Positions 1 to 53,339 of a stretch of 54,486 nt of DNA are shown in pieces. A model generated the notes under the pieces. The model was not told the origin of the DNA. It ran no database searches and worked only from the letters and a program-made list of their open reading frames with translations. Position numbers and translations under genes: made by a program. Position 1 is the first letter of the stretch. Every line of letters begins with the position of its first letter. This stretch comes from Gemmatimonas sp. (lineage in GTDB: Bacteria > Gemmatimonadota > Gemmatimonadetes > Gemmatimonadales > Gemmatimonadaceae): contig JAJKIV010000421.1 of NCBI GenBank assembly GCA_021154285.1, forward strand, positions 1 to 54,486, in the 5' to 3' direction.

Positions 1-387
1 GGCGGCGCGCTCTCCGATCGGTTCGGGAGAAAGCCGCTCATCCTCGCGGGCTGGGCGGTCTACGCGGCGGTCTACCTCGGCTTCGGCAGAGCCACGGAGA
101 CGTGGCACGCGTGGGCGCTGTTCCTCGCGTACGGCACGTTCTTCGGGCTTACGGAAGGCACGCAGGCGGCCTTGATCGCCGACCTGGTTGGACAGGCGCG
201 ACGTGGCACGGCCTACGGCTGGTATTCCCTCGCGATCGGCATCGGAGCGCTGCCGGCGTCAGTTCTGTTCGGGTTGGTGTGGGACCGTGTAAGTCCGCGT
301 GCGGCGTTCGACCTTGGGGCCACGCTCGCGCTCGCGGCGGCCGTGGTTCTGCTCGCAGTGAGACCGCAGCCGACCGCGAACACCTAA
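1..387 (+). CDS. MFS transporter, C-terminal fragment (5' end lies outside the window)
   Basis: Frame 1 is open from base 1. The translation GGALSDRFGRKPLILAGWAVYAAVYLGF...GRRGTAYGWYSLAIGIGALPASVLFG has MFS-like TM helices and loop motifs. The TAA stop is at 385-387. Confidence 0.7.
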   Translation, partial: GGALSDRFGRKPLILAGWAVYAAVYLGFGRATETWHAWALFLAYGTFFGLTEGTQAALIADLVGQARRGTAYGWYSLAIGIGALPASVLFGLVWDRVSPRAAFDLGATLALAAAVVLLAVRPQPTANT

Positions 388-1250
388 CGTGGTACCGTCG
401 CCACGACGGGCGACGACGCCGTGACCCTTCGGATGAACGCGTCGATGGCTCCGTAATAGCGCACACGATCGGCGGTGTACGCATCCGCATGCCCGGCGTT
501 CAGCTCGACGAACTCTTTCGGCTCGGAAGCCGCGGCGAACAGCTTTCTTCCGTGCTCGATCGGGATCGTCCGGTCGTTGCGCGCGTGGAGGAACAGCTTG
601 GGGAGCCGCAGCGCTCCAACCTTGTCGATCGACGCAAACCGGCTGCTGGCGATGAGCCGGATCGGAAGCACCGGAAAGACTTCCTGCCCACGGTCAGCGA
701 CTGAGGTGTAGGCGTCCTCGATGATCAGGCCGGCGGCGCTCACCTGCCGCGCGAGCTCGATCGTGACGCCGGTACCTAACGAATGGCCGAACAGCACGAT
801 GCGCGATGGAGGGACGTGCAGCGAGTCCGTGAGGTACCGGTAGCCGGCTGCGGCATCCGCGTACACGCCGGCTTCGCTCGGGCTGCCCTCGCTCGCACCG
901 AAGCCTCGATAATCGTAGGCGAAGAGGTTTACGCCGAGGTCGCGGAACCACGCGTAGAACTGCGGCCTGCCGCCGTAGCCGATGTTGCCGTAGTTGCCGT
1001 GCGAGATGAGCACCCAGGGCGCATCTGGTGTAGCCCGAGCGGCGGGGATGATCCATGCCGAGAGCGTCGTGGAATCAGCGGCCTTGAACGAGACGGCTCG
1101 CTCGTGCAGTGCGAGCGAAGCGTCAGGCGGATCTACCGCGCGCGCGCCCGGTTGATACACGAGGCGTGGCTCGTACAGTCGTATGCCGATAATGGCGGCC
1201 ACGTAGGCCACACAGAGAATGATCGCGACCACCTTCAGGGCGCTGAGCAC
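384..1250 (-). CDS. alpha/beta-fold serine hydrolase (BEM46/ABHD-like)
   Basis: 288 aa with an N-terminal TM helix, HGNYGN, a GHSLG nucleophile elbow, and Asp/His late in the sequence (ARNDRTIP, AGHAD). Confidence 0.85.
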   Translation of the reverse strand: MLSALKVVAIILCVAYVAAIIGIRLYEPRLVYQPGARAVDPPDASLALHERAVSFKAADSTTLSAWIIPAARATPDAPWVLISHGNYGNIGYGGRPQFYAWFRDLGVNLFAYDYRGFGASEGSPSEAGVYADAAAGYRYLTDSLHVPPSRIVLFGHSLGTGVTIELARQVSAAGLIIEDAYTSVADRGQEVFPVLPIRLIASSRFASIDKVGALRLPKLFLHARNDRTIPIEHGRKLFAAASEPKEFVELNAGHADAYTADRVRYYGAIDAFIRRVTASSPVVATVPR

Positions 1251-1268
1251 GTGTGACCGACCGCCTCT

Positions 1269-1499: not shown

Positions 1500-3872
1500 T
1501 TACTTGTGCTCCCCGGGATTCGCGGCAGCGGGCCCGCGTTTGGCCAGATGCGTCTCGAACAGCTCGAAGATTCTTCGATACTCATCCGCCCACGACGACG
1601 GCCGCACGAATCCGTGGTCCTCCACTGGATACGGTGCGAGCTCCCAGTTCGTTTTCCCGAGCTCGATGAGCCGTTGCGTGAGACGAACGATGTCCTGGAA
1701 ATGTACGTTCACGTCCACCATCCCGTGCGCCATGAGAAGTGGATCCTCCAAACCCTGCGCGAAGTAGATGGGCGACGATCGGTGATACGCGATGGAGTCG
1801 TCCTGCGGCTGGTTGAGGATGCGCGCCGTGTACGGATGGTTGTAATGGGCCCAGTCGGTGACGCTGCGCAGCCCGGCACCGGCGCCGAAATGCTTTGGCT
1901 CGGTGAACAGTGCCATGAGCGTGATGAATCCGCCGTAGCTGCCTCCGTAGATGCCGACGCGCTCAGGGTCGATGCCGAACTCCTTCTGCAGGTAGCGCGA
2001 TCCATCCACGTTGTCCTGCAGATCGCGCCCACCCATCCACCGGTAGATTGCGGTTCGCCAATCTCGCCCGTAACCCGCGGATCCCCGGTAGTCGATGTCG
2101 AGCACGACGTAGCCCTTCGACGCGAGGTACTGGTTGAACATGTACTCGCGCGAGTAGCTGGACCAATAGTTGTGAACGTTGTGCAGGTAGCCGGCTCCAT
2201 GCACGAAGATCACTCCGGCCCCGTTAGGCTGGGCGCCGACGTCTTTCGGCCGGTAGATCCGCGCGGGAACCTGCACGCCGTCGGATGCCGGGATACGTAC
2301 GATCTCCGGCGTGATCCAGTGAAACGCCAGCCACTCGGCGGTAGGCGACGTGGTGAGCTGCGTGGCGGCTGCGCCGGCGCGGTACGGCATGACGAACAGC
2401 TCCGGCGGGCGATTCGCGGACGAATAGACGTCGGCAAGCAACGTCCCGTCCGGCGACACGACGACGTTATGACCGCCGGCCTTCGTCGTGATCCGTTCGC
2501 GGGAGCCTCCCGCGACCGGCATGCGATAGAAGTGCTGCTCGAACGGCGACGCCTCACTCGTGTGCAGCTCGAACGAGCGCTTGTCTGCCGACAGCTGCGC
2601 GCCGGTCACTTCCCATTTGCCGCTCGTGAGCTGTCGACGGTCCTGGCCGTTCGGGTCCATCGTGTAGAGGTGGGCGTAGCCGTCCGCCTCCGACACGAAC
2701 CAGACGCGTTTGCCACCGTCGTACCAGCCGCCGCACCCATAGCACGGTCCGCCCACCCACGCGCTGTCGCGCAGCGTGTCCAGGGTTTCGAGCTTGCCTG
2801 TCGCCGCTTCGAACTTGTGGATGTAGCGCGACTTGTAGTTCCGTGCCTCGGCGAATATCAGCGCGGCGCTCCCGTCATCGCTCCAGCCTAACGTGGTCAC
2901 CTGCGACGGCGGTTTCGTGGTGTCCGCGGGAACGACCTGCAGCCAGGTGAGGTCGCCGCTCGGCAGCTTCATGTAGGCAACGCGGCCGCCCGACTGCGCG
3001 TCGCCGACCTTCGTGCGCACGGTGAGCTCTTCCGTGTATCCGCTCGTCGTGACGTAGTTCGGAACTCGCGTCTGGGTGGCCTTGTCGGCGGTCACCGAGG
3101 TTACCAGCAGCAGCGCGTTCGCGGTCGGCGACACGGAGAGGGACGCAATGCGCTCGTTCGTGCCCAGGTAGAATGGCTTCACCCGCAGCGCTTCACGCGC
3201 TTTCTGCTCGGCCTTCCGAACGCTGTCGGCGCGAACGCGGTCGCGGATCACGTCGAAGAGCTCGCGCTGCTGCTCCTCGAGTGTCCCGCGCTGACCTTCG
3301 GCTTTTGCCGAGTCCTTGGGCGCTGGCCCGGACCTAACGTCGGTCAATTGCCGAACGAGGCCGCCGTCCAGGTCGATCGAGAAGACGTTGTTCTCGCGCA
3401 CGAAGAACACGCGGCGGCCGTCAGCGGAGAAATGCGGGTCGCGTTCTTCGGCGACGGTCTCGGTCAGCCGCCGAACTGCGCCGGAGGGCAGCGAGACGAT
3501 GTAGAGGTCGCCCTGTGCGGAGACCACGCGTGAGCGACGGTCGCGCGCGAGGTCGCCGGTCTCGAGCAGCGCACTTACGCTGTCGAGCTGCGCGTCAGGC
3601 ACTCGCTCCGGAGTCGAGCCTCCGCTCGCACGAACGCGATAAAGATGCGTCGGTTCGCGCCAGTCGGTGCCGGGCGGGTTCCACTGGAAGTAGAGCCACC
3701 GGCCGTCGGCACTCCATTGCACGCGCTGCGGCTCGCGGCCGTAGAGCTCGGGGCCGCGCATGATGCTCGGAATACTGAACTCAAACGCCTTCGTCGCTAG
3801 CGGCTGTGCGGAAACGACGCCGCCACACACCAGGGAGCTGACGATCAGCGAGATACGGCCAGTCGAACGCAT
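1500..3872 (-). CDS. S9-family serine peptidase (prolyl oligopeptidase / dipeptidyl-peptidase type), secreted
   Basis: Catalytic triad context GGSYGG ... HGMVDVNV ... EDHGF, with an N-terminal beta-propeller-like region. I place the start at ATG 3872 (MRSTGRISLIVSSLVCGGVVSAQ signal peptide) rather than the track start 3977, which would overlap cstA. Confidence 0.85.
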   Translation of the reverse strand: MRSTGRISLIVSSLVCGGVVSAQPLATKAFEFSIPSIMRGPELYGREPQRVQWSADGRWLYFQWNPPGTDWREPTHLYRVRASGGSTPERVPDAQLDSVSALLETGDLARDRRSRVVSAQGDLYIVSLPSGAVRRLTETVAEERDPHFSADGRRVFFVRENNVFSIDLDGGLVRQLTDVRSGPAPKDSAKAEGQRGTLEEQQRELFDVIRDRVRADSVRKAEQKAREALRVKPFYLGTNERIASLSVSPTANALLLVTSVTADKATQTRVPNYVTTSGYTEELTVRTKVGDAQSGGRVAYMKLPSGDLTWLQVVPADTTKPPSQVTTLGWSDDGSAALIFAEARNYKSRYIHKFEAATGKLETLDTLRDSAWVGGPCYGCGGWYDGGKRVWFVSEADGYAHLYTMDPNGQDRRQLTSGKWEVTGAQLSADKRSFELHTSEASPFEQHFYRMPVAGGSRERITTKAGGHNVVVSPDGTLLADVYSSANRPPELFVMPYRAGAAATQLTTSPTAEWLAFHWITPEIVRIPASDGVQVPARIYRPKDVGAQPNGAGVIFVHGAGYLHNVHNYWSSYSREYMFNQYLASKGYVVLDIDYRGSAGYGRDWRTAIYRWMGGRDLQDNVDGSRYLQKEFGIDPERVGIYGGSYGGFITLMALFTEPKHFGAGAGLRSVTDWAHYNHPYTARILNQPQDDSIAYHRSSPIYFAQGLEDPLLMAHGMVDVNVHFQDIVRLTQRLIELGKTNWELAPYPVEDHGFVRPSSWADEYRRIFELFETHLAKRGPAAANPGEHK

Positions 3873-3957
3873 AACGAATTCAAGTGAATGGCAGCTGCCT
3901 GCTAGCCCTACGCGCCCGACCCAGACAGCCAGTCCCGCGTCGGCCAGTCCCCAGTCG

Positions 3958-6027
<2,070 letters not shown>

Positions 6028-7906: not shown

Positions 7907-8728
7907 ATGGTGACGGTGTTCCACGTCTCTGACCTGCATTTCGGTCGCCCGTTCGTACCCGAGCAGATCGAAGCCATCGAGACGATCATCCAGGAACGCC
8001 GGTTCGATGTCGTCGCCATCTCGGGTGATCTCTCACAGCGCGCGCGCTCGGGAGAGTTCCAGCGGGCTCAGGCCTTCATCCGCGATGCGAACAGAGTAAG
8101 CAAGACGATCGTCGTGCCGGGCAATCACGACGTCCTCTGGTGGAAAGCCCCGTTCGGCATCGGCGATGGCGAACGCCCGTACGAGAATTATCGGCGATAC
8201 ATCTCGGAGGATCTCGAGCCGGTGCTGCGCGTACCCGGCGCGACGTTCGTCGGCCTGAACTCCGCGCACGGCGTAACGCGTCACACGCTCACGTGGCGGC
8301 TCCGCGACATCTCGATCATCGGGGCCATTCGTCGACCGCAAGTCGATCACGCTCGCGAAGAGTTCGAAGGCTCACCGTCGGAGGACGCGCGCGTCATCGT
8401 CATGCATCACAATCCGGTGAAAGGCGAGCTGTCGGGGCGACACGGCCTCAAGGACACGCGCAAGGTGCTCGGCGCGTTCGCGACGATCGGTGTCGACCTC
8501 GTGCTTTGCGGCCACGACCATCAGGAAGCCGTGCATTACATCGAGCACACACAGAAGGGCACGGTGATCTCGACGGCTGGCACGGTGTCGAGTCGCTCTC
8601 GCGGCGGTCGCCCATCATCGACTAACGTAATTACCATTCGACACGAGACCATCGAGGTCGCCACGCTCGTGTGGTCGGCGGCCGAGAAGACATTCACCCC
8701 AGGACCGTCACGGTGCTTCGATCGTTAG
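7907..8728 (+). CDS. metallophosphoesterase (calcineurin-like)
   Basis: Carries SDLHFG, GDLSQ, GNHD, MHHNP and GHDH motifs in canonical order. Confidence 0.8.
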   Translation: MVTVFHVSDLHFGRPFVPEQIEAIETIIQERRFDVVAISGDLSQRARSGEFQRAQAFIRDANRVSKTIVVPGNHDVLWWKAPFGIGDGERPYENYRRYISEDLEPVLRVPGATFVGLNSAHGVTRHTLTWRLRDISIIGAIRRPQVDHAREEFEGSPSEDARVIVMHHNPVKGELSGRHGLKDTRKVLGAFATIGVDLVLCGHDHQEAVHYIEHTQKGTVISTAGTVSSRSRGGRPSSTNVITIRHETIEVATLVWSAAEKTFTPGPSRCFDR

Positions 8729-9495
8729 GCCGGCTGTTCACGCGGCCGCACGACCAGCTCGCACTCCCGCTCGATGCCGCGCCGCGGAACGCGACCGAGC
8801 TGCTCGCGCGGTTGCGAGCGCTCGGGTTGAGCGGCATCGATCGCTGTCGTCTCACGCGAAATCGCGCCGTCATGGTGAGCTATCGCGGTCGTGAGCTTCG
8901 CGTGCACGAGGGATACCTCACCGCGCCGCCGGAGGTGTTGGCTGCCGTCGTTACCTTCGTGAGCGGGCGCACGGCGGCTTCTCGCCGACTCGCTCGTCGC
9001 CGTATTCTCGCGTACCCGATCGCGCGTGCTCCTCGAGCGCGGCGACCGGACGCGCCACACCCGGACGACGCGCCGCTCGCGAAGCGACTCGTGGAGTGGC
9101 ATCGCCGCTACAACGACCGCCACTTCGACGGCGCGCTCAAGTCCGTCCCCGTGCGGGTCTCGCGTCGCATGCGCGCGCGACTCGGCCACTACATGTCCGC
9201 GGCTCCATCGGGCGAGCCAGCGGAGATCGTGGTGAGTCGCCGCCACATTCGTCGCCACGGCTGGGAGGAAGCGCTGCACACGCTGCTGCACGAGATGGTG
9301 CACCAGTGGCAGGACGAGACGGGTCACCCGATCGATCACGGCCGCATGTTCCGCGCGAAAGCACGTGAGGTTGGCGTGGTCCCGTCGGCGCGCCGAACGG
9401 TCACGCCACTGCGTTCACGTCGCGATGCTCCCGCGCAGAAGAACGCGCCTGCCGCGGCGCAGCATCTGTCGCTGAAGGCCGCACGCGAAGAATAG
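8713..9495 (+). CDS. SprT-like zinc-metalloprotease domain protein
   Basis: HTLLHEMVHQW (HExxH) in a SprT-like context. I prefer the GTG start at 8713 (16-nt overlap with the upstream gene); the track start is 8671. Confidence 0.65.
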   Translation: MLRSLGRLFTRPHDQLALPLDAAPRNATELLARLRALGLSGIDRCRLTRNRAVMVSYRGRELRVHEGYLTAPPEVLAAVVTFVSGRTAASRRLARRRILAYPIARAPRARRPDAPHPDDAPLAKRLVEWHRRYNDRHFDGALKSVPVRVSRRMRARLGHYMSAAPSGEPAEIVVSRRHIRRHGWEEALHTLLHEMVHQWQDETGHPIDHGRMFRAKAREVGVVPSARRTVTPLRSRRDAPAQKNAPAAAQHLSLKAAREE

Positions 9496-10829: not shown

Positions 10830-11882
10830 GTGATCGGTCGTCGCCTCTGGACCATCGCGGCGGTTGTCGTGATGGCCGCCGGACGCCTCGCGGCGCAGCA
10901 GCCGAACCCGCAACAGCCGGCGCCGCCGCCGCATGTCGCTCCCCCATGGCGGATGAGCATCCGCGCCGACAATGACGCGTTCAACTTCTGGCGCGGGATC
11001 CATGACCGGCCCGACAAGGAATACACGAACGGCGACGAGGTGACCGTCGAGGTGTCGGCGGCGCCGTGGTGGGGTCGCCGTTTCGCGAGCCAGCTCGAGC
11101 CGTGCAAGGGTACTGAGCCGTCGGGCACCCGCTGCCTAACGACCGCGTTGTCTCTCGGGCAGGACATGTACACGCCCAAGCCGAGCCGCGAGCCGCGCGA
11201 AACGACGGATTGGCAGGACGACCGGCCGTATGCCGCCTGGCTGTACGCGAGCGGCGAGGCGCGCGTGCTCAGCGAGGAGTCCATGCGAACGGTGAGCCTG
11301 GCGCTCGGTGTCGTCGGGCCGCCGGCGTTAGGGGAGCTCGCGCAGCGGACTGCCCACAGGCTCTCCGGCGTGTACGACCAGGACCCGATTGGTTGGGACA
11401 CCCAGGTCGGCTTCGAGCCCGGCATCATGCTGTCGGCGCGGAGCGTACGTCGTTTCGTCGGCCGCTTGCCGTCGGGGCGTGCGGTCGTGGACTTCACTCC
11501 GCAGATCGGCGGATCGTTCGGGAACGTCCTGACCGAGGCGGAAGGCGGTTTCCAGCTTCGCGCCGGCACGAACCTCTCGAGTCCCTGGTGGACGAACGGA
11601 ACCGGTCGCGCGCCGGTCGAGCTATACGCCCTCGGCGGCGTTCGGGGCGAGGCAGTGGCCCACAACATCACGCTCGACGGCAACACGTCAGGCACCACGC
11701 GCCGCGTGGATCGCGTGCCGCTCGTCGGCGAATACTCCGTGGGCGTGGGCGGCCGGTTTGGCGGATTCCTCGCCGAGTGGCGAGCCGTGACGCGAAGCCG
11801 CGAGTACACGACCGGCCCGATGGAGCACGCGTACAGCACGCTGTTCGCCAGCTACGAAGTGCCGGTGCACCTGGGTCGCTGA
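10830..11882 (+). CDS. LpxR-family (DUF2219) outer-membrane protein, putative lipid A deacylase
   Basis: Signal peptide (WTIAAVVVMAAGRLAAQQ), then ADNDAFNF...DKEYTNGDEV, characteristic of DUF2219/LpxR. GTG start at 10830; the track ORF 10305.. runs back through gcdH and is not credible. Confidence 0.6.
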   Translation: MIGRRLWTIAAVVVMAAGRLAAQQPNPQQPAPPPHVAPPWRMSIRADNDAFNFWRGIHDRPDKEYTNGDEVTVEVSAAPWWGRRFASQLEPCKGTEPSGTRCLTTALSLGQDMYTPKPSREPRETTDWQDDRPYAAWLYASGEARVLSEESMRTVSLALGVVGPPALGELAQRTAHRLSGVYDQDPIGWDTQVGFEPGIMLSARSVRRFVGRLPSGRAVVDFTPQIGGSFGNVLTEAEGGFQLRAGTNLSSPWWTNGTGRAPVELYALGGVRGEAVAHNITLDGNTSGTTRRVDRVPLVGEYSVGVGGRFGGFLAEWRAVTRSREYTTGPMEHAYSTLFASYEVPVHLGR

Positions 11883-23874: not shown

Positions 23875-23881
23875 CTAACGT

Positions 23882-40596: not shown

Positions 40597-41460
40597 TTAA
40601 CGCCCGGTTCGGTCGATCGAGAGCTTGCCGAAGACCGTTTCCGCGGTCACGCGGACTTTATGTGGGGCCGAGTCCCAGTTCTTCGAAACCCACGCGCCAT
40701 CGCGCTCGATTAGCCCTTCATGATCGAAGGACGCTACCGTCTTCTCGAGCGAGACATGCACTCCGACATCAGCAGGGACGTGAATGGTGACGATCCCGAG
40801 CGTCACCTCCACGTGAAGCTCGATGTCTCGTGTCCACTGGCCGCCAAGGTCGAGCTCGACGCTCCCGACTCCCGCATCCACCCGAATGTCCGGGGTATTT
40901 GCGTTGGCGAGGCGATCCCCTCGAAAGCTGGCTGCACCGAGCGAGATCTCGAGCACGCTCATCTTTGTCGCGTTGAGCGAGTCGAACCGCAGCTTGGCGT
41001 CACTCGCGCCTGACTCGACATGCAGCCGAGAGATCTTGAGCCCGGTGAGGTCGAGGTCCGATTCCACGGCCCCGAGATCCAAGTTCAGATCGAGCGGTGT
41101 GGTCCTCGAAAGCTCGAGCTGTAAATACCCCGCGTTCGGGTCGTTCCGTCCTGTGAACCGCATCTCCGACTTCTGCACACCGATCTGCAGCTTGCGCGAT
41201 GCCACGTCGAACGTGTGCCTGGGCTGGGTTCGCGTGGCGTCGTATCGAAGCTGCATGTGATAGAGCAGCGGATTCGATGTCGCCCTAACGCCCATTTTGC
41301 CCGTCCCGTACACGACCTGCACAGATGCAGGCGCCGAATCGCTGAGCTGTCGCGCGACGTCGAGCGTACGCCAGCTCTGCGCGCCGGCACTCGATGCAAC
41401 GACACACGCCGCGACCGCCGCGAAACCGAGCGCGGAACGTCGGCTAAGGCGTGCCATCAT
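40597..41460 (-). CDS. secreted 'toast-rack' beta-strand repeat protein (DUF2154/DUF4097-like)
   Basis: ATG at 41460 gives MMARLSRRSALGFAAVAACVVASSAGAQ (signal peptide). It has repeated short beta-strand units (LDLNLDLGAVESDLDLTG, VDAGVGSVELDLGG, VEVTLGIVTIHVP). Confidence 0.5.
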   Translation of the reverse strand: MMARLSRRSALGFAAVAACVVASSAGAQSWRTLDVARQLSDSAPASVQVVYGTGKMGVRATSNPLLYHMQLRYDATRTQPRHTFDVASRKLQIGVQKSEMRFTGRNDPNAGYLQLELSRTTPLDLNLDLGAVESDLDLTGLKISRLHVESGASDAKLRFDSLNATKMSVLEISLGAASFRGDRLANANTPDIRVDAGVGSVELDLGGQWTRDIELHVEVTLGIVTIHVPADVGVHVSLEKTVASFDHEGLIERDGAWVSKNWDSAPHKVRVTAETVFGKLSIDRTGR

Positions 41461-42659
41461 CGGTCGCGTGTGGAGGACGACGGTGTTGGCCGCCGCGCGG
41501 CCACGATGCCAGTCACCGGCGTAGGCGTCTGCCACGGAATGTCGTTCACCGCGGCAAACGACGCGGTTGGCGCGGACCGCCGCGTTCCGCCGCGCGAGAT
41601 CACGGCTGCGCCAAGACCCGCAGTCGCAGCGACCCACGTGATGGCTACCGCGACAGCGCGAAGCACTGTCTCCACAATCGGCGCCCACGCGAACGCCGAC
41701 GCGAGCACCCACAGTCCCATGTAGATGGAAACGCCCACCACGAGCGCGCGAAGCGCTGCGCCGCGCGCCGAGTATCGCTTGCTCGCGGCCGGTGCAACCG
41801 ATTCGCCCGTGATGCGCGCAATCGCGAGGAAGCCGAGCGTGATCAGGCCCGCAACCGCGAGGACGAACGCCACGATCGCGAACGGAATGAGCAGTACGCC
41901 GAGAATCGTGATCGCGAGGGCGACGACGAGGAGGCAGAGCACCGGCGCAAGTGCCAGCTGTGTCGCGATGCCCGCCCAGAACGAGCGGCCGAATCTGCCC
42001 TCGAGAGAATCCACGACCCCGTCGAGATAGTCGCCGGCAAAAAGCAGCACGCCGATCGCCATCAGTACGAGGATGATCAACCAGCTCGACGACAGCGCGA
42101 GGGCGTGACGCGTGCTGCGCGCAGGCGACTCCGACTCCGCTGCTTGCTGCACAGCGCCGAGCGCTCCAGCGAGTTGGCGGATTTCTCCACCGACGGTCCC
42201 GCCTGCCAGCGTCACGTTGCCTAACGCCGACACGGCGTTGCCGGTGACCCGGCCCCCGGGATGCACGATCACGTCGCTCCCAATCGCGATGGCGTCGCCG
42301 TTGACCGTGCCGTAGACGTGCAGCGGCCCACCGGTTACCGCGACCGGACCGGCGACCGTGGTGCCCGCCGGAATTGTCCGGCCGCCCATTGCGATCTGCT
42401 TGTTTGGCGGCAGCGCGACGGCCTCCGGATCACGCCGAAAACGACCGACGAGCTCGTTCAGGGAATCCAAGGTCGCCTTGGAAAGCCGAGTCTTTCCCGA
42501 ATCCGCAGCCTCGACGGCGACCTCCGGAGCGCCCGTTTTCGCCGCCGAGTCGACGGCTGGCTTTTCGGCCTTCGGTTTCTGCTGAATGGCGGCGGCCTGC
42601 CGAGCCGTCAGCGGCGCCGTAGCAACCGCGAGGATCAGCGGGAGAATAGCCGTTCGCAT
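41457..42659 (-). CDS. membrane protein with N-terminal bactofilin-like (polymer-forming beta-helix) domain and polytopic C-terminal domain
   Basis: Signal/anchor sequence, then the GPVAVTGGPLHVYGTVNGDAIAIGSDVIVHPGGRVTGNAVSALGNVTLAGGTVGGEI repeat pattern, followed by 5-6 TM helices. Confidence 0.5.
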   Translation of the reverse strand: MRTAILPLILAVATAPLTARQAAAIQQKPKAEKPAVDSAAKTGAPEVAVEAADSGKTRLSKATLDSLNELVGRFRRDPEAVALPPNKQIAMGGRTIPAGTTVAGPVAVTGGPLHVYGTVNGDAIAIGSDVIVHPGGRVTGNAVSALGNVTLAGGTVGGEIRQLAGALGAVQQAAESESPARSTRHALALSSSWLIILVLMAIGVLLFAGDYLDGVVDSLEGRFGRSFWAGIATQLALAPVLCLLVVALAITILGVLLIPFAIVAFVLAVAGLITLGFLAIARITGESVAPAASKRYSARGAALRALVVGVSIYMGLWVLASAFAWAPIVETVLRAVAVAITWVAATAGLGAAVISRGGTRRSAPTASFAAVNDIPWQTPTPVTGIVAARRPTPSSSTRDR

Positions 42660-44791: not shown

Positions 44792-46276
44792 ATGACCCTC
44801 GATTCGCTCTCCGATTTCATCGCCGCTATCGAACGGGCCGGCGAGCTCGTTCGCGTTAGGCAGCCGGTCGCCGTGAAGCTCGAGATGTGCGAGGTCGCCG
44901 ACCGGGCGATGAAGATGCCTGGCGGTGGACCCGCACTGCTGTTCGACCAGCCCGTGCTCGATGATGGAACCATCTCCGCGTATCCGGTCGCGATCAACCT
45001 GTTCGGCTCCATGAGCCGCATGGCGCTCGCCCTCGGCGTTCGCGACCTCGACGAGATAGGCGCGCGGATCACGCAGCTCATGGACCTCAAGGTCCCTGAC
45101 GGTATCGTGGCGAAGCTCTCGCTCATCCCCCGACTGCTCGAGGTCGCGCGCTTCCCCCCTCGGCCCACGCGGGGAGCGACGCCGTGCCAGGAGGTCGTCT
45201 GGCAGGGCAACCAGGTCGAACTTCGGAAGCTGCCGGTCATGACGACCTGGCCGGAGGACGGCGGCCCGTTCATCACGCTCCCCATGGTCATCTCGCGCGA
45301 CCCGAAACGTGGGATCCGAAACGTTGGGATGTATCGGGTCCAGGTCCTCGGACCGCGAACGGTCGCCATGCACTGGCAGCGTCACAAGGTCGGCGCGGCG
45401 CACTGGCGCGAGATGGCGGAACGTGGCGAAACCATGCCTGTGTGCATCGCCGTCGGCGCCGACCCCGCGTCGATCTATTCCGCGTCGGCGCCACTGCCGC
45501 CAACGGTCGATGAGTTTTTGTTCGCGGGATTTCTCCGTGGAGCGCCCGTTCACCTCGCGAAAGCCCTGACCTGCGATCTCGATGTTCCGGCGTCAGCGGA
45601 GTTCGTGCTCGAGGGCTACATCGATCCGCGTGAGGCACTCGTCGTCGAAGGACCGTTCGGGGACCACACCGGCTTCTACTCCGAGGCCGACCTGTACCCG
45701 CAGGTGCACATCACGGCGGTTACGATGCGCCGGAACCCGGTCTACGTGTCGACGATCGTCGGTCGCCCGCCGATGGAAGACTTCTATCTTGGCCACGCCA
45801 CGGAGCGCATCTTCCTGCCGCTGCTGAAACTGACGATTCCCGAGATCGTCGACTACCACATGCCCGCCGAGGGCATCTTCCACAACCTCGTCTTCGTCTC
45901 GATCGACAAGCAGTATCCCGGGCAAGCCTACAAAGTGATGAACGCCATGTGGGGTCAGGGGCTCATGTCGCTCGCGAAGGTACTCGTGATCGTCGACAAG
46001 GAAGTCAACGTGCGGAACCCACAGGAAGCGTGGTGGGTGGCACTCAACAACATTGACCCGGAGCGGGACACGCGCTTCACCATGGGCCCGGTCGATGTTC
46101 TCGATCACTCGAGCCGAGCGTTCACCTACGGCTCGAAGATGGGTATCGACGCGACGCGAAAGTGGCCCGAGGAGGGATTCACTCGGAACTGGCCGACGGT
46201 GATCGAGATGGATGCGGCGACACGGGCTCGCGTCGACGAACTCTGGCCGCAGCTCGGCATCGGGACGCGCAGGTGA
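44792..46276 (+). CDS. ubiD: UbiD-family (prFMN-dependent) aromatic decarboxylase
   Basis: Carries [20 protein letters not shown] and IDATRKW. ATG start at 44792. Confidence 0.9.
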
Positions 46277-46283: not shown

Positions 46284-47660
46284 ATGACGGCTCTGCTTCG
46301 CGCGACGGCGTTGCTGCAGGAACCGACCGGCTACAATCCGGCGCGGCTGTACTTCACGCTGGCGTTCATGTTCGTATTCGTTGGCGTGGCGGTCGCGTTC
46401 GTTCGGACTCGCTACCCGAAGCGGTTGATCGCGGACATCGCGAGCACGCTGGGCATCTTTATGCTCGTGATCGGTACGATCGTCTATACCGTCGCGTTCC
46501 GCGGCCTGCGCCCGGCCGAGGTGGTTCTCGCGTGGGTGTTGTCGCTGGGGGCCATCGCGTGGTTCGTCGTCAAGCTCAACGCCATCATGTCGCGCCCCCT
46601 GACACTGCTCGAGGATCTGGCGTCGGCCGTCCGGCGCGGCGATTGGGCGATGCTGTTGCGCGGCAACGACGGCGCCGCCGGCCAGGATGTCGGCGTAGCG
46701 CTGAGCGAAGTAGGTGCCTTGATCGGCGAAACGCGGAAGACCGCGTCCGAGGTGTTGGGCGCCTCGTCCGACGTGGCGCGAATCGGCGCGACGGTTGCGG
46801 ATGGAGCCGGCCGCATCGCGACGTCACTCGGCGGCGTGACCGGCGGCGTGAACCGCAGCATGGATGCTGCCCGCCAGATTCGTCAGGCCGCAACGCAGCT
46901 CGACGAGGCGGCCGCCGCGACCCACACGTCGGCGCGCGAGTCGCGCGAGATCTCGGCCAAGGTCGAGGCCAGTGCGCAGCTCGGCGTTAGGCGCGCCGCC
47001 GACGCCATGAAGTCGGTCACCGAGCTGGCCGAGCTGGCGCGCGACCTCGTGCAACGGATGGTGGCGCTCCGCACCGCCTCGGGCGACATCGGGGACGTCA
47101 CCACGGTGGTCGGCGACATCGGCCGTCAGACCAATCTCCTCGCGCTCAACGCGTCGATCGAGGCGGCGCGCGCCGGCGAGGCCGGCCGCGGCTTCGCCGT
47201 GGTTGCCGAAGAAGTGGGCAAGCTGGCGATGCAGAGTGGCGGCTCCGTGGGTCGGATCGAGGTTCTCGTCCGCGAGATGATCGATCGGATCGAGGACGCG
47301 TCAGGGCGGGTCGCGAGCATGGAATCCGCAGTGAAGCGTGGCGAGCAAGTCATGCAGGAGGCGGTTGGGGTATTTCATTCCATCGAGCAGGATGCCCGGC
47401 GGACACTGTCGTTGGCGGACGCTGTGCTGAGGGCATCCGAGCGTCAGGATCTGCTCGTCAGGCAGATGAACGATGCATCCACGCTGGTCGCGGACGCCGC
47501 CGATGCGTCGTCCGCGGCGACGGACGAAGCGGCCCGAGCGATGCAGCATCAACGGTCGCTCACGGAACAGCTGCGCGAAACGGCGTACGCGCTCGAGCGT
47601 TCGGCGGGATCTCTTGGGGAAGTCGTGGCGCGATTCGGCGCGGGAGGGGGTGGGGAATGA
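46284..47660 (+). CDS. methyl-accepting chemotaxis protein without periplasmic ligand-binding domain
   Basis: [30 protein letters not shown] is the conserved signalling hairpin. It has three N-terminal TM helices and a HAMP-like segment. The stop overlaps the ubiA start (ATGA). Confidence 0.85.
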
Positions 47661-48556
47661 CTCGACCACGGGAAGGGCAAACGTTCGACGGCGGCTCACG
47701 ACTCGTCCGCTACGTGAACTTCGTGAAGCTGCCGCACACGGTGTTCGCGCTCCCGTTCGCGCTGGTGGGTGCGACGCTGGCCAGCTACACGCACGGCGTG
47801 ACGCTCGCGACGCTCGGCTGGATCGTGCTCGCCTTCACGGCGGCGCGCTTCGCGGCGATGGGTTTCAACCGGATCGTGGATCGGCAGATCGACGCCCGAA
47901 ATCCGAGGACCGCGAAGCGCGAGCTTCCGGCCGGCCTCCTCGGAGTTCGAGAGGCGTCGCTCGCAGTGCTGGTTGCCTGTGTGGTGTTCGTGTTCGCTGC
48001 CTGGAAGCTCAATCCGCTGTGCGCGATGTTGAGTCCGATCGCGCTCGGCTGGGTGCTCTGGTACAGCTACACGAAGCGGTTCACGCACTGGTCGCACATC
48101 GTGCTCGGCGTGGGGCTCGCCATCGCGCCGGTCGGCGGGTACCTGGCGGTGTCCGGCGCGTGGAGCGTGCCATGGTGGATGTTGATCGCGCTGGCGGCCG
48201 GTGTCTCATCGTGGACGGCGGGCTTCGACATTCTGTACGCACTGCAGGACGAGGACTTCGATCGCGCGGAGCGGCTGCACTCGGTGCCCGTGGTGTTCGG
48301 ACGCCGGGGTGCCCTCGCGATCGCGCGCGGGCTTCACGTGCTGACGATCGTGTCGCTCGCCGCCGTGGGTGCCGCGGTGCCTGTAGGGTGGCTGTACGCC
48401 GCCGGTGTGGTCGTTGCCGCAGGGCTACTCCTGTACGAGCATTCGCTCGTGCGCGGCGATGACCTCTCCCGCCTGGATGCCGCGTTCTTCACCATGAACG
48501 GAGTCATCAGCCTAACGTTTTTCGGTTTCGTGCTCGCCGAGCGTCTGGTGCGATGA
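47657..48556 (+). CDS. ubiA: UbiA-family aromatic polyprenyltransferase (4-hydroxybenzoate or MqnP type)
   Basis: [15 protein letters not shown] (NxxxDxxxD) and a second Asp-rich motif YALQDEDFD. 8-9 TM helices. Confidence 0.85.
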
Positions 48557-49181: not shown

Positions 49182-49652
49182 ATGCGAGTCATTGGCGTCA
49201 TTTCGGACACGCATGGGCTATTACGCCCTGACGTGCACTCGGCCCTGGCTGGCGTCGACCTCATTCTGCACGCTGGAGATGTCGGCGGAGACGAGATCCT
49301 GACGGAGCTCGAGCTCATCGCGCCGGTACGCGCGGTGTATGGAAACACCGATGCGCCGGGTCAGCCGGGACTCGCGCCGGCGATCGACATAGCGGTCGAC
49401 GGCGTTTCGATCCACGTGAGCCACGGTCACGAGGTTGGCTTGCCAACTCCGGAAAAGCTGCTGGAGCGCTACGCGGCCGACGTCGTCGTGTACGGGCACA
49501 CGCATCGACCGTTGATCGCGCGGGCGTCCAACCGCCTGGTGCTGAATCCGGGCGCGGCCGGCCCTCGGCGGTTCGACATCGTGCCGAGCGTGGCGAGGTT
49601 GACCATCGCTGATGGTTGCGCCGAGGCGGAATTAATCGGGCTGCGCGCCTAA
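49182..49652 (+). CDS. YfcE/MJ0936-family metallophosphoesterase
   Basis: Carries ISDTHG, AGDV, GNTD, SHGH and GHTH. 156 aa. Confidence 0.85.
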   Translation: MRVIGVISDTHGLLRPDVHSALAGVDLILHAGDVGGDEILTELELIAPVRAVYGNTDAPGQPGLAPAIDIAVDGVSIHVSHGHEVGLPTPEKLLERYAADVVVYGHTHRPLIARASNRLVLNPGAAGPRRFDIVPSVARLTIADGCAEAELIGLRA

Positions 49653-49660
49653 CGCCGTTC

Positions 49661-49779
49661 GACCGATGACCAATAACCGACGACTCAAAACCGATAACTC
49701 ATGACTCGCGCGACGTCGCGACCGACCGTCACCAGTCATAAGTTCTTCGTTACGGGTCGTTAGTTCTTGTTTATCAGTT
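49661..49779. repeat. ~120-nt hairpin repeat element F (homologous to element C at 15849-15968)
   Basis: It starts GACCGATGAC like element C. About 34 of the first 48 nt are identical to C without gaps. It shares the 14-mer GTCGTTAGTTCTTG (49756-49769 versus 15924-15937). The central 12-bp palindrome CGCGACGTCGCG lies at 49707-49718. Confidence 0.85.
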
Positions 49780-49793
49780 TTCCTTACACGAGT

Positions 49794-50147: not shown

Positions 50148-51254
50148 CTACGAACGAACGGCGCTGCGTGTGTTGTCGAGCTCGGCCGGATTGCGACGGA
50201 ACCACGACGACAGCAGCAACAGCTCATCGATCTCGTGCGTCGGAACCGACGCCGTCTGCCGCTCGGGCGGCGAATAGACCGACTGGACCAGCTCGTTCAG
50301 CGACCGTCGATCTCGGGACGTTCGCGGGGCAGGGACTTCTGCCCGCACGCGCCCCCGACGAATGAGATACAACCGATCGTCGCCTTCGTGTCCTCGTACC
50401 GTGTAAAGAAATGACAAAGTTTCGACGGCGAACCGCAGGCGACCGAACTGCTCGCGAAGCTCTTCCAGCCGGTGAAGCTTGTCTCGAAGCGACGCGGCCC
50501 GCTCGAACTCCATGCGGTCGCTCGCTGACTGCATGTCTCCACGCAGCCGTTCGATCGGCCCATCATCGGCCCCTTCGAGAAACGCGCGCGCCATTGATAC
50601 GCGCTCGGCGTACGCGTTCACCGTGCACGCGCCAACGCACGGCCCGAGACACTTCCTGACTTCGTGGCGAATACAGCCAGGGGTCCGCACCGGCGCTCCG
50701 AACAGATCCCCCTGATCCGCAAAGTACATCTTCTGATCGAGCGAACAATCGCGGAGGCCAAGCGCGTCACTCAATTCACGCACAGCTTCGCCGATTCGCT
50801 GCGCTCCGAGGAACGGCCCGTAGTAAACACCGCCGTCTTCGCTGCCGGCGCCGCGAACGACCAGGAGCTTCGGCGCGGCACCGCGACTGAGCTTGATGAA
50901 CGCGTAGTGACGCGCATCACGCTTCATCGCCACGTTGAACCGGGGCCGCAGCCGCTTGATGAGCCTCAACTCGGTCAGCAGCGCGGCGAACTCGCTCGGC
51001 GTGTACTCCCAGTCGATCGATGTCGCCTCGCGCAGAATACGCGCGCCCTTGTCCTCTGGGTAGGCGCAGCGGAAGTAGCTCAGGAGCCGCGTCCGAACTT
51101 TCTTCGACTTGCCGACATAAACTACCTCGCCGTCCGGGGACAGCATTCGATAGACACCAGGCCGGTCCAGCGCGCCCTCACGGACCACTCCACGCATTCG
51201 CATGATGTCTTCGTCCGAGGTTGGCGCTCGGCGCGACGTTCTCAGCGCTGACAT
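50148..51254 (-). CDS. UvrC-homologous GIY-YIG nuclease (Cho-like; lacks the UvrC C-terminal endonuclease/HhH half)
   Basis: GVYRMLSPDGEVVYVGKSKKVRTRLLSYF (GIY-YIG), a UvrC-like middle region and a UVR-like helix (FERAASLRDKLHRLEEL). At 368 aa it is far shorter than UvrC. Confidence 0.7.
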   Translation of the reverse strand: MSALRTSRRAPTSDEDIMRMRGVVREGALDRPGVYRMLSPDGEVVYVGKSKKVRTRLLSYFRCAYPEDKGARILREATSIDWEYTPSEFAALLTELRLIKRLRPRFNVAMKRDARHYAFIKLSRGAAPKLLVVRGAGSEDGGVYYGPFLGAQRIGEAVRELSDALGLRDCSLDQKMYFADQGDLFGAPVRTPGCIRHEVRKCLGPCVGACTVNAYAERVSMARAFLEGADDGPIERLRGDMQSASDRMEFERAASLRDKLHRLEELREQFGRLRFAVETLSFLYTVRGHEGDDRLYLIRRGRVRAEVPAPRTSRDRRSLNELVQSVYSPPERQTASVPTHEIDELLLLSSWFRRNPAELDNTRSAVRS

Positions 51255-52069
51255 TGCCAGCAGAACACGGTGGAGCGGCCGTCGATGGCGTGTGTGGCGA
51301 CGAGCGTGCGTCCGCAGCGCTGGCAGCGCTCGCCTCCGCGACCATACGCCTGCAGGCGTTCCGCGAACGACCCTCGCGCTCCGGAGGCATCACGATAATC
51401 GCGGAAGCTCGTACCGCGCGCGGCCACGGCCTCGGTCAGCACGCCACGCAGCTCGGCGTGCAGACGCGCCGCTTCGGCCGGCGATAAGGCCGCTGCCGGC
51501 CGCGAAGGATCTATCCCGGATCGCCAGAGCGCTTCGTTCGCGTAGATGTTGCCCACTCCAACGAGTCGACGTTGGTCCATCAACACCCGCTTGACTGCCT
51601 GTCGCGAAGCCCGAAGAATGGCCGATAGTCGTTCGACGGTAAAGACCGGGTCCAACGGCTCGTCACCGAGGCCTCCCGAGTAGCGAGCGAATCGCTGCTC
51701 GTCCATCACGCTCACGGTGCCCAGCCGACGAATATCGCGGTAGTGGAGGGAGCGCTCGCGGTCGAGGACGAACTCGATGGTCGAGTAACGTCGCTCGGTC
51801 TCCGGAAGCGAACCATCGTCAATGAGCAGCGCGCCGGTGAACCGCGGCTGCACGACGATCCGATCGCTCGACGACAGATCGAGCACGATCAGCTTTGCGC
51901 GACGCCACGCGTGGTCGATGACGGAGCCCACGACGCGGCGCCGCAGCTGACGAGCGTCAACCTCGCGCAGCACATCGCCCCGCCTGACCCTAACGTCGGT
52001 GATCCTGCTGCCAGCGATCGCGCGGTCGAGGTCGCGCGCGATCGTCTCGGTCTCAGGTAGCTCGGGCAC
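51242..52069 (-). CDS. mutM: formamidopyrimidine-DNA glycosylase
   Basis: MPELPETE N-terminus (catalytic Pro2/Glu3), H2TH domain, and the C-terminal zinc finger CQRCG...CWQCQ. Confidence 0.9.
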   Translation of the reverse strand: MPELPETETIARDLDRAIAGSRITDVRVRRGDVLREVDARQLRRRVVGSVIDHAWRRAKLIVLDLSSSDRIVVQPRFTGALLIDDGSLPETERRYSTIEFVLDRERSLHYRDIRRLGTVSVMDEQRFARYSGGLGDEPLDPVFTVERLSAILRASRQAVKRVLMDQRRLVGVGNIYANEALWRSGIDPSRPAAALSPAEAARLHAELRGVLTEAVAARGTSFRDYRDASGARGSFAERLQAYGRGGERCQRCGRTLVATHAIDGRSTVFCWQCQR

Positions 52070-53339
52070 GCCGTGCCGATTCGCGCCATCCGACGTCGGC
52101 GCGATACTGCTTGCCCTGAAACTCGACGCCCGCGGCGTAGTCCGCGCTGGCGCGCTGAGCCTCGTCGAACGACGCCGCCACGGCGGTCACCGCGAGCACT
52201 CGTCCACCGGCTGTCACGAGCGATCCGTCCGGTTTGCGCGCCGTCCCCGCGTGAAACGCGATGACGCGATCATCGGGCTCGGGCAACGCGATCGTATCCC
52301 CCGTGACGGGCGACTCGGGGTAACCACGCGCGGCGAGGACCGTGGTGACGGCGAACGAGGGCTCCCACTCGAACGGCCGAATGGCGCCGAGGCCGTTGCC
52401 CGAAGCAACCGCCATGAACGCGTCGAGCAACGAGCTCCGCATGAGTGGGAGGATCGCCTGCGTTTCGGGGTCACCGAACCGACAGTTGAACTCCACCACC
52501 TTCGCTCCCTCGTCGGTCAGCATGAGGCCAGCGTAGAGGAGGCCGCTGAACGGGCACCCGCGCTCGCGAAGCGCGCCGAGCATGGGCGCGATGATTCGCG
52601 TAGCGGCTTCCCTAACGATGGACGCGGTTCCAATCGCCACCGGTGCGTATGCGCCCATCCCTCCGGTGTTGGGGCCCGCGTCACCAGCAAAGAGACGCTT
52701 GTGGTCCTGCACCGGCAGCATCGTTAGGAAGTGCTCGCCGTCGGTCACGGCGAACAGCGAGAGCTCCTCGCCGTGCATGAACTCCTCGACGAGCACCTCG
52801 CTTCCCGCCTCACCAAGCGCGCCGTCGCGCAGCATGCGGTCGATGGCGGCGTGCGCCTCGGCGACGGTCTCGCAGACCACGACGCCCTTTCCGGCGGCGA
52901 GTCCCGTCGCCTTGATCACGACCGGCGCCCCGAGCTCCGCGACCGCGTGGCGAGCCGACTCGACGTCGGTGTGGTGGGAGGCTCGCGCCGTCGGCACGCC
53001 CGCGGCGACCATGACTTCCTTGGCGAATCGCTTGGACGTCTCGATTCCGGCAGCGGCAGCGGATGGCCCGAAGGTTGGGATGCCACGCGCCCTGAGCGCG
53101 TCGGCTACACCTGCCGCGAGCGGCGCCTCGGGTCCCACCACGACCAGATCTACTCGTTCGGCGGCCGCGAGCTCCACTACGCGCCCGACATCCGTCGCCG
53201 ACACTGCGACACAACGCGCAAGCTCCCCGATGCCCGGGTTGCCCGGAGCAGCGAGGAGCTCGAGAGTTGGATCATCGCGTTTGAGCTTCCACGCGAGGGC
53301 GTGTTCTCGTCCGCCCCCGCCGAGGATCAGTGCTCTCAC
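52053..53339 (-). CDS. purD: phosphoribosylamine--glycine ligase
   Basis: MRALILGGGGREHALAWKL and ATP-grasp motifs. 428 aa. Confidence 0.92.
   Translation of the reverse strand: MRALILGGGGREHALAWKLKRDDPTLELLAAPGNPGIGELARCVAVSATDVGRVVELAAAERVDLVVVGPEAPLAAGVADALRARGIPTFGPSAAAAGIETSKRFAKEVMVAAGVPTARASHHTDVESARHAVAELGAPVVIKATGLAAGKGVVVCETVAEAHAAIDRMLRDGALGEAGSEVLVEEFMHGEELSLFAVTDGEHFLTMLPVQDHKRLFAGDAGPNTGGMGAYAPVAIGTASIVREAATRIIAPMLGALRERGCPFSGLLYAGLMLTDEGAKVVEFNCRFGDPETQAILPLMRSSLLDAFMAVASGNGLGAIRPFEWEPSFAVTTVLAARGYPESPVTGDTIALPEPDDRVIAFHAGTARKPDGSLVTAGGRVLAVTAVAASFDEAQRASADYAAGVEFQGKQYRADVGWRESARRARAT

Follow-up and report, generated by a model that had tools for sequence, protein, structure and literature searches.

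Short signature words that are maintained in genomes by drive are known from few bacterial groups, namely the DNA uptake sequences (DUS) of Neisseriaceae, the uptake signal sequences (USS) of Pasteurellaceae, and the octamer HIP1 (highly iterated palindrome 1) of cyanobacteria, and both the origin and the purpose of such words are debated. DUS form clade-level dialects (PMC3630211), and their establishment has been tied to core-genome recombination (PMC2397512). Only 34.5% of DUS lie within open reading frames (ORFs), compared with 65% of Haemophilus influenzae USS, which sit at poorly conserved amino acids and are absent from distant relatives (PMC2817400). In DUS and USS genomes, over-representation falls ~90-fold from the perfect word to its one-mismatch forms (PMC1939737), and it has recently been proposed that HIP1 serves as a watermark for DNA uptake or transformation (bioRxiv 10.64898/2026.06.24.733823). 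Here we describe the heptamer CCTAACG (CGTTAGG on the opposite strand) in a 54,486-nucleotide contig of Gemmatimonas sp. (JAJKIV010000421.1, hereafter the window), where an earlier inspection of the letters alone (the original prediction) had picked it out as a highly iterated word resembling DUS, USS, or HIP1 and matching no described motif. Full-text literature searches likewise found no report of the heptamer, the octamer that contains it, or its 6-mer cores in this sense, none linking Gemmatimonas to uptake sequences, and no record of CCTAACG as an enzyme recognition site. CCTAACG is thus a hyper-abundant, drive-type word previously undescribed for this sequence and this phylum.

An exact search of both strands returned 35 copies of the heptamer in the window, 20 on the + strand and 15 on the − strand, a density of 0.64/kb or ~1 per 1.5 kb; the original prediction had counted at least 35 by eye with the same split. 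A 5′ G extends 24 of the 35 copies to the octamer GCCTAACG, the two-thirds that had been claimed, and neither word is self-complementary, i.e. both are nonpalindromic. The enrichment itself had been underestimated at 5–10 fold, from ~6 heptamers and ~2 octamers expected. Dinucleotide-preserving shuffles gave 2.44 ± 1.58 heptamers (maximum 7, with 0/100 shuffles reaching 35) and 0.97 octamers, while an order-3 Markov model predicted 3.1 and 1.0. When synonymous codons were permuted among positions encoding the same amino acid, preserving the proteins and the codon usage, rare codons of the word itself included, 1.54 ± 1.21 copies were expected in coding sequence (CDS) versus 30 observed, and 0/2000 shuffles reached 30. 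The empirical outgroup rate, 12 copies in 900 kb, corresponds to ~0.7 per 54 kb. The nulls run on the window thus give 1.5–3.1 heptamers and ~1 octamer, the enrichment of the heptamer is ~14–50 fold, and the order-1 and order-3 Markov, codon-shuffle, and outgroup-empirical nulls together rule out a codon-usage or dinucleotide artefact. In a scan of all words on both strands, CCTAACG and its sub- and superstrings were the most deviant at k = 6–9, with Z-scores of 18–22 under the order-3 model compared with ~5 for the next unrelated words.

CCTAACG is a bare, discrete word and not the core of a longer repeat, because the flanks of the 35 aligned copies carry no information (~0) beyond the G at −1 (24/35). 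The same empty flanks rule out a longer repeat element, and dispersed repeats (repetitive extragenic palindromic and mosaic elements [REP/BIME], miniature inverted-repeat transposable elements, and short dispersed repeats) are ruled out by the uninformative flanks, the 86–91% of copies that are coding, and ungapped ortholog alignments. A bipartite (type I-like) motif or a promoter element is ruled out by the lack of an informative partner position within ±15 nt. Copies are spaced slightly more evenly than random (coefficient of variation [CV] 0.745, P = 0.04), with a small largest gap (P = 0.065), they occupy coding and noncoding DNA in proportion to length, and no close inverted pairs occur in the window. 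One-mismatch forms as a class number 97 versus 104 (order-3 Markov) or 73 (outgroup-scaled) expected, a comparison of low power in one window. The five near-variants that the original prediction listed do exist (15926, 33150, 49758, 38318, and 29852), although the one-mismatch class as a whole shows no clear enrichment, and individual near-sites match perfect sites in relatives: CGTTAGA at 29852 is a perfect site in the related metagenome locus L168.

The enrichment is a trait of genome scale, sharply bounded to one genus-level clade of Gemmatimonadaceae, because all close loci are enriched, including DNA past the window end, and a syntenic relative at 77% identity lacks the word. In-clade loci were collected by finding metagenome protein homologs of GpmI and PurD and then their encoding contigs, yielding a graded series of GpmI identity. 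Every tested relative with GpmI at ≥85% or PurD at ≥79% identity is enriched (0.23–0.74/kb, at least 5 metagenome lineages), and the signal is therefore not confined to the window. Among the loci with GpmI at ≥85% (GC 63–69%), the closest relative L081 (95%) has 6 copies in 10.1 kb, L082 has 4 in 5.4 kb, L085/L086 (JGI Ga0255338_1000028/ENA ERZ27250632) has 8 in 21.6 kb, L168 has 13 in 21.4 kb, and L169/L170 has 8 in 21.6 kb, with CCTAACG again the top outlier in most of them. The purD loci were chosen to test DNA outside the window's synteny, and in the 9 kb beyond the window end, where ~0.3 copies are expected, they hold 5 of the 12 copies of L171, 6 of the 14 of L172 (NCBI GCA_046725585.1), and 3 of the 5 of L173. 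The word is enriched in independent JGI, ENA, and NCBI assemblies.

Outside this clade the word is scarce. The fully syntenic 77% GpmI relative L167 (NCBI GCA_045804285.1) has 0 copies in 18.8 kb, and nine family-level relatives (L001–L009) neither are enriched for CCTAACG nor have a comparable over-represented word of their own. A scan of species-representative genomes reached only relatives with GuaB at ≤82% identity, none of them enriched; the best GuaB matches there are Gemmatimonadaceae/Gemmatimonadales metagenome-assembled genomes (MAGs) at 72–82%. In 80 metagenome outgroup loci with GpmI at ≤71% identity (900 kb), only 12 copies were found versus 47 expected from dinucleotides, so that CCTAACG is normally avoided outside the clade. 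Non-clade loci overall (2.2 Mb) hold ~1 copy per 75–130 kb, and for the octamer 147 of 161 such loci have none and 13 have one (17 in total). The sole outlier, L030, an Acidobacteria MAG contig (JACPDH010000009.1), carries four dispersed copies of GCCTAACG in 21.5 kb, at 3499, 14454, 16628, and 17478, which could reflect chance or a second lineage using the same word.

Two other over-represented words came to light in these loci. L085/L086 carries a second word, AACCGGGA/ACCGGGAA, which the window lacks, with 9 and 8 copies in 21.5 kb versus ~0.6 expected. An 11-mer family around GGGACAGACCC, with 10 copies in 21 kb, occurs in L070, a MAG of the unrelated Acidobacteriota (Bryobacteraceae, OZ244565.1), and is probably a dispersed repeat.

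Within genes, the word is placed wherever its stop codons allow. Codon-model gene calls gave 52 genes covering 91% of the window, and 30 of the 35 copies lie wholly within CDS, confined to the four stop-free phases: 13 as NCG-TTA-GGN, 9 as NNC-CTA-ACG, 5 as NNC-GTT-AGG, and 3 as CCT-AAC-GNN, the frames and rare codons that had been noted from the letters. The remaining 5 copies are at gene ends or in spacers. The two stop-bearing frames are used at gene ends only, where the word's TAA or TAG is the actual stop codon of four + strand genes (385–387, 8726–8728, 39599–39601, and 49650–49652), again as noted earlier. Orientation relative to transcription is unbiased (12 same, 18 antisense), and an RNA- or translation-level signal is ruled out by the use of both orientations to genes and of four frames. 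The word holds 13 of the window's 20 TTA and 9 of its 37 CTA codons, and away from it both codons are far scarcer, one of the points on which the original prediction could have been refuted. It writes 22% of [S/P/T/A]-Leu-Gly tripeptides, compared with 0/231 permissive contexts in outgroups, as well as 11% of x-Leu-Thr, 4% of x-Val-Arg, and 3/6 Pro-Asn-[VADEG].

Comparison with relatives indicates how these sites arose. Nucleotide alignments contain shared, window-only, and relative-only sites, none of them associated with indels, and a codon-level ortholog table of nine window sites found the word missing from every outgroup at 9/9. These sites are therefore derived, in situ substitutions, since all outgroups lack the word at all nine orthologous positions. 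Some gains are synonymous changes to rare codons (CTC GGC to TTA GGC, CTC ACG to CTA ACG), while others replace outgroup-variable residues, including Leu-Ala to Leu-Thr and Arg/Lys to Leu in GpmI, Pro-Ser/Gly/Asp to Pro-Asn in GuaB, and a Pro-Ala to Pro-Asn change. Between most in-clade lineages, fourfold degenerate sites have almost saturated (identity 0.42–0.52; 0.69 between the window and L081), and motif sites are kept above phase-matched 7-mers in three comparisons: 6/9 vs 0.185 (p = 0.002), 5/6 vs 0.22 (p = 0.003), and 5/5 vs 0.42 (p = 0.013). A matrix of 17 unique coding sites in six lineages contains sites shared in a partly nested way, together with gains private to each of the lineages, with few sites in common with L169, the most divergent in-clade lineage, and a 9:8 orientation split across the 17 orthologous sites. 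The word has been accumulating and maintained in one clade, with gains continuing. It is imposed on the DNA regardless of strand, frame, and gene, against codon preference and in some cases at the expense of the ancestral residue, which upholds the original prediction of selection or a biased process acting on DNA.

The best explanation of these patterns is that gCCTAACG is a lineage-specific signature word under copy-by-copy molecular drive on DNA, rather than a product of selection on protein or RNA. Extrapolation from the window density yields an estimate of thousands of copies per genome (~3000). With so many copies the fitness effect of each would be minute, and drive fits better than selection for a cis-acting function: any per-site benefit would be too small to beat codon bias and amino-acid constraint, whereas transmission bias works on each site. 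The single most likely drive, which we put forward tentatively, would be a DUS/USS-like uptake signal, i.e. sequence-biased DNA uptake followed by homologous recombination, of which we infer the uptake step. Word-bearing fragments would be favored by a DNA receptor at the surface or in the periplasm, and an allele that gains the word would enter conspecific genomes, by uptake and recombination, more frequently than one without it. Copies would build up wherever the protein can accommodate them (S/P/T/A-Leu-Gly, x-Leu-Thr, x-Val-Arg, Pro-Asn, stop codons, and spacers). An AT-cored word with TAA and TAG could mark self DNA ~50 fold in a high-GC community, and it would be an efficient self-label because such a stop-containing word is nearly absent from other high-GC genomes. 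The pattern first likened to DUS, USS, or HIP1 thus stands, being limited to a genus-level clade, absent from the syntenic 77% relative, and conserved above controls, while the uptake function is suggested by analogy.

Several points weigh against an uptake signal. There is no clear graded excess of one-mismatch forms in the window, where power is low; the flat spectrum is compatible with the ~90-fold drop seen in real DUS and USS (PMC1939737), from which an excess of ~1.2–1.5 fold is expected, below the power of one window. At 7–8 bp, the word is shorter than known DUS (10–12 bp) or USS (9 bp plus flanks), and the terminator-forming inverted pairs of Neisseria are absent. No competence, pilus, or DNA-receptor genes are among the annotated window genes (Pfam, NCBIfam), natural transformation in Gemmatimonadota is undocumented in the literature searched, and these data do not tell uptake bias apart from other biases that work copy by copy, sequence-specific repair and gene conversion among them.

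The strongest competitor is a methylation- or repair-linked ratchet like that envisaged for HIP1, in which a clade-specific methyltransferase or nicking/repair enzyme reads CCTAACG and a bias in repair or gene conversion keeps and fixes its sites. Type IIG, IIL, and III recognition sites are usually asymmetric 6–7 bp words containing A, a format that CCTAACG has, and its sharp exact-word specificity, with no clear enrichment of one-mismatch forms, is typical of restriction-modification-type readers. A mobile enzyme could also account for the four full octamers in 21 kb of the Acidobacteria L030, the sole outlier of the 161 non-clade loci, and the indel-free spread of CCTAACG by substitution and its above-background conservation have parallels reported for HIP1 (PMC5861425; bioRxiv 10.64898/2026.06.24.733823). 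Even for HIP1, however, the mechanism is hypothetical, restriction-modification targets are normally avoided or neutral rather than enriched, and a hemimethylation-based, MutH-style mechanism is not directly transferable to a nonpalindromic word. The window contains no DNA methyltransferase or repair nuclease genes, its methyltransferases being of protein or ubiquinone types. On balance we regard such an enzyme-driven ratchet as unlikely, although well worth keeping in view; the word may have a secondary role in tagging self DNA under it, for example in methylation-dependent transformation as proposed for HIP1, and since HIP1 is argued to act in that process, the uptake and repair ideas may converge (bioRxiv 10.64898/2026.06.24.733823).

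Two further proposals seem to us more doubtful still, and about equally so. In one, the clade's RecBCD/AddAB-type helicase-nuclease would read the word as a Chi-like recombination hotspot that spares self DNA from degradation. The word is a nonpalindromic 7–8-mer over-represented across core housekeeping genes, its density falls in the range of known Chi sites, and a lineage-specific word would fit coevolution with the recognition subunit. Polarity is absent, however: the orientations are 20:15 in the window and 9:8 at unique orthologous sites, interleaved along 54 kb, and with a 75% skew as in Escherichia coli P(X ≤ 20 of 35) = 0.016, a value calculated with the window's replication direction not given and its GC skew flat. 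Known Chi sites are under weak per-site selection and ride on preferred codons; a 14–50 fold enrichment against codon preference, with amino-acid replacements, is far above that. Alternatively, the word could be the site of an architectural, segregation-, or silencing-related protein whose regular density is kept by selection on chromosome organization, as the quasi-periodicity of HIP1 has been interpreted (PMC5861425). Its mildly even spacing (CV 0.745, P = 0.04), small largest gap (P = 0.065), and independence of orientation are in keeping with this, but selection on one of ~3000 sites is unlikely to beat codon bias and protein constraint, and individual sites turn over freely between lineages. 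Nor is any nucleoid protein known to us to use an exact 7-bp word at such density. Least of all do we credit chance, codon usage, mutation bias, dispersed repeats, or an assembly artefact, a possibility that has nothing in its favor and is nearly negligible given that none of the 100 dinucleotide or 2000 codon shuffles reach the observed count. The background for CCTAACG comes out too high under the dinucleotide model on its own. The flanks are unrelated, sites are in frame and indel-free in orthologous genes, and the word recurs in independent JGI, ENA, and NCBI assemblies while similar-GC outgroups lack it. Copy-by-copy drive on DNA, tentatively through uptake, thus remains our preferred account.

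The individual copies are given here by heptamer span, strand, and whether the octamer is complete (8-mer) or not (7-mer); of the start positions originally read by eye, 31 were exact and four were off (23875, 36410, 42230, and 52620 are in fact 23874, 36400, 42220, and 52611). At 383–389 (+, 7-mer), TAA (385–387) ends the + strand gene 1–387, a major facilitator superfamily fragment; this gene and the convergent alpha/beta hydrolase gene 384–1250(−) overlap by 4 nt, and the one copy at 383 gives both stops (TAA on +, TAG on −). The hydrolase gene contains a second copy at 775–781 (+, 7-mer), antisense as TCG TTA GGT (S-L-G). Three copies are in the S9-type peptidase gene 1500–3872(−), at 2222–2228 (−, 8-mer; CCT AAC G, P-N), 2887–2893 (+, 8-mer; ACG TTA GGC, T-L-G), and 3333–3339 (+, 7-mer; GAC GTT AGG, D-V-R), and cstA 3958–6027(−) has one at 4418–4424 (+, 8-mer; CCG TTA GGC, P-L-G). 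The copy at 8723–8729 (−, 8-mer) supplies the TAG (8726–8728) that ends the metallophosphoesterase gene 7907–8728(+) and is also within the overlapping SprT-like ORF 8671–9495(+). The lpxR-like gene 10830–11882(+) carries 11135–11141 (+, 8-mer; TGC CTA ACG, C-L-T) and 11326–11332 (−, 7-mer; GCG TTA GGG, A-L-G), and etfA 12704–13690(+) carries 12864–12870 (−, 8-mer; GCG TTA GGC) and 13066–13072 (+, 7-mer; GAC CTA ACG, D-L-T).

For the next stretch the relatives can be read alongside. The copy at 16029–16035 (−, 8-mer), CGC CTA ACG in the hypothetical gene 15963–16544(−), is also found in L168 and L085 and not in L169 or the outgroup L003. In moeA 17322–18572(−), 17340–17346 (−, 8-mer; GGC CTA ACG) is shared with L168 only, outgroups having CTC GCC or CTC TCC, and at 18484–18490 (+, 8-mer; GCG TTA GGC) outgroups have GCG CTC GGN, a synonymous two-step change to the rare TTA. 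The copy at 20058–20064 (+, 8-mer; GCG TTA GGC), also in L085, was called intergenic and is probably in the N-terminus of an S13 peptidase (long ORF 18572–20137(−)), and 41284–41290 (+, 7-mer), likewise called intergenic, is inside the unannotated ORF 40597–41712(−) in the GTT AGG frame; both are probably in coding DNA trimmed by the gene caller. At 23874–23880 (+, 7-mer) the word fills the spacer from the gpmI stop to the start codon of the downstream gene 23187–23873(−), as it does in L081, while L082 and L085 have CCGAACG. Within gpmI 23882–25432(−), 24164–24170 (−, 8-mer; TGC CTA ACG, C-L-T) is also in L081, L082, L168, and L085, with C-L-A/S/G in outgroups and hence a gain that changed Ala to Thr, and 24461–24467 (−, 8-mer; GGC CTA ACG, G-L-T) is shared with L081 only, other lineages having G-R/K/M-T. 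The copy at 27246–27252 (−, 8-mer; GCG TTA GGC) in gene 26714–27421(+) is restricted to the window, the 95% relative L081 having GCG CTG GGT. Gene 28523–29488(+) has 28925–28931 (+, 8-mer; CCT AAC GAG, P-N-E), also in L081, with P-A/S-E in all others, and gene 29473–30540(+) has 29579–29585 (−, 8-mer; GCG TTA GGC), also in L081, L168, and L085, with GCC/ATC (Ala/Ile) at the Leu position in outgroups. The guaB copy (31542–33032(+)) at 32193–32199 (+, 7-mer; CCT AAC GCG, P-N-A) is present in all in-clade lineages covering the site, outgroups having P-S/G/N/D by other codons.

Farther along, 36400–36406 (+, 8-mer; CGC CTA ACG) is in the Mrp/NUBPL-type ATPase gene 36284–37402(+), and the MATE transporter gene 37465–38841(+) contains 37820–37826 (−, 8-mer; ACG TTA GGC) and 38327–38333 (−, 8-mer; GCG TTA GGC), the latter with the one-off variant CGTTAGC 9 nt upstream at 38318. 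The copy at 39597–39603 (+, 8-mer) gives the TAA (39599–39601) of gene 38846–39601(+), a SAM hydroxide adenosyltransferase, and is also in the 3′ end of the convergent BrkB gene 39581–40537(−) as CCG TTA GGC. Single copies follow at 42220–42226 (+, 8-mer; GCG TTA GGC) in the hypothetical gene 41457–42659(−), 44854–44860 (−, 8-mer; CGC GTT AGG) in the UbiD-family (futalosine pathway) decarboxylase gene 44792–46276(+), 46985–46991 (−, 8-mer; GGC GTT AGG) in the chemoreceptor gene 46284–47660(+), and 48511–48517 (+, 8-mer; AGC CTA ACG) in the UbiA prenyltransferase gene 47714–48556(+). At 49648–49654 (+, 8-mer), TAA (49650–49652) ends gene 49233–49652(+), and fpg/mutM 51242–52069(−) carries 51989–51995 (+, 7-mer; GAC GTT AGG). 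The last two copies, in purD 52053–53339(−), are at 52611–52617 (+, 7-mer; ATC GTT AGG) and 52722–52728 (−, 7-mer; TTC CTA ACG), and both recur at the corresponding positions in the purD loci L171 and L172.

The window comes from the chromosome of a Gemmatimonadaceae bacterium, in a region of housekeeping genes with a GC content of 64–68% and no GC-skew trend. By Pfam and NCBIfam, its ~50 genes have housekeeping functions only, including CstA, isocitrate/isopropylmalate dehydrogenase, EtfAB, acyl-CoA dehydrogenase, molybdenum-cofactor genes, GpmI, GuaB, a MATE pump, futalosine-pathway menaquinone genes, a chemoreceptor, Fpg, and PurD. RecBCD/AddAB genes are absent from it. This annotation rules out a local cause of the enrichment, and no obvious foreign DNA was found in the window or the fetched loci.

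Some additional features were observed in the same DNA. The near-variants at 15926, 33150, and 49758, whose CGTTAGT form had been linked to hairpin repeats, belong to a separate 10-mer, CGTTAGTTCT, with three copies (15926–15935, 33150–33159, and 49758–49767, all +), each intergenic and 3′ of + strand genes. The first comes after a perfect 12-bp-stem hairpin (CGACTCGGGAAG...CTTCCCGAGTCG), and outside the window CGTTAGTTCT occurs in the closest relative L081 alone, at the orthologous position downstream of guaB; it looks like a terminator-tail motif and is not a family of decayed copies of CCTAACG, so that the suggested link to the hairpin repeats is not supported. Also downstream of guaB is a C-rich run of imperfect short repeats (33090–33150, CGTCGCC/CAGTCGCC units), preceded by a terminator-like hairpin (CCCTCGGGAGG...CCCGAGGG), with a similar run in L081. 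Finally, a c-di-GMP-I riboswitch at 28425–28512 (+) (Rfam RF01051, 37.1 bits vs a gathering score of 35) is directly upstream of gene 28523–29488(+), which is within a cell-wall gene cluster (SH3 protein, YkuD L,D-transpeptidase) and whose orthologs have weak Peptidase_M15 matches.

To the few signature words described so far, CCTAACG adds one that is unrelated to them and belongs to an equally unrelated, mostly uncultured phylum. Its onset is sharp and recent, between 77% and 85% GpmI identity, and because synteny persists between genomes with and without the enrichment, gains can be polarized site by site and the causal gene could be found by comparing gene content. Since the word opposes codon bias, DNA-level drive is also cleanly separable from translational selection. 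An uptake role, if true, would mean species-biased natural transformation in soil Gemmatimonadota, a phylum in which competence has never been shown; the responsible receptor gene would be findable by phylogenetic profiling, and adding the word to donor DNA might raise uptake, providing a handle for genetic manipulation. The bolder proposal that this is a third independent DNA-uptake specificity (a fourth with HIP1), and the shortest signal known, in an uncultured soil/freshwater Gemmatimonadaceae genus, we advance with slightly more reserve than the uptake signal itself. CCTAACG is in any case a ready k-mer marker for binning and for spotting DNA of the clade in metagenomes.

Among known systems, the Pasteurellaceae USS (Hin-type AAGTGCGGT, Apl-type ACAAGCGGT) offer a close likeness, being short nonpalindromic words at ~1 per 1.2–1.5 kb, mostly genic, in both orientations and fairly evenly spaced, gained through point substitutions in reading frames that permit them and at residues of low conservation, and missing from distant relatives. 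CCTAACG differs in being unrelated in sequence, in another phylum, only 7–8 bp long, and without flanking AT-tract motifs, and it is built on the genome's rarest codons whereas USS are built on preferred ones. With the Neisseriaceae DUS (AT-GCCGTCTGAA and dialects) it shares the character of a lineage-specific, hyper-abundant, asymmetric word with clade-level boundaries, although DUS are 10–12 bp, enriched between genes, and often paired as inverted repeats in terminators, while CCTAACG is 86–91% coding with no close inverted pairs. HIP1 (GCGATCGC) is likewise an octamer-scale word, 15–300 fold over-represented in coding and noncoding DNA, spread by indel-free substitution, and conserved beyond codon or amino-acid explanations (PMC5861425), but it is palindromic, holds the methyltransferase sites GATC and CGATCG, and is phylum-wide; CCTAACG is asymmetric, confined to the genus level, and without a known cognate enzyme. 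Chi (e.g. E. coli GCTGGTGG) and the skewed octamers AIMS (architecture imparting sequences) and KOPS (FtsK orienting polarized sequences) are also nonpalindromic 5–8-mers over-represented in core genes, yet they are few-fold enriched, mostly on preferred codons, and strand-polar to replication, with a strong skew that in AIMS and KOPS reverses at ori and dif, in contrast to a word without polarity (20:15) that is 14–50 fold enriched on rare codons. On tested features CCTAACG falls outside HIP-type palindromes, Chi/AIMS, and repeat elements, and, with no claim of membership, it matches DUS and USS in density, in nonpolar dispersal through housekeeping genes, and in its in situ origin.

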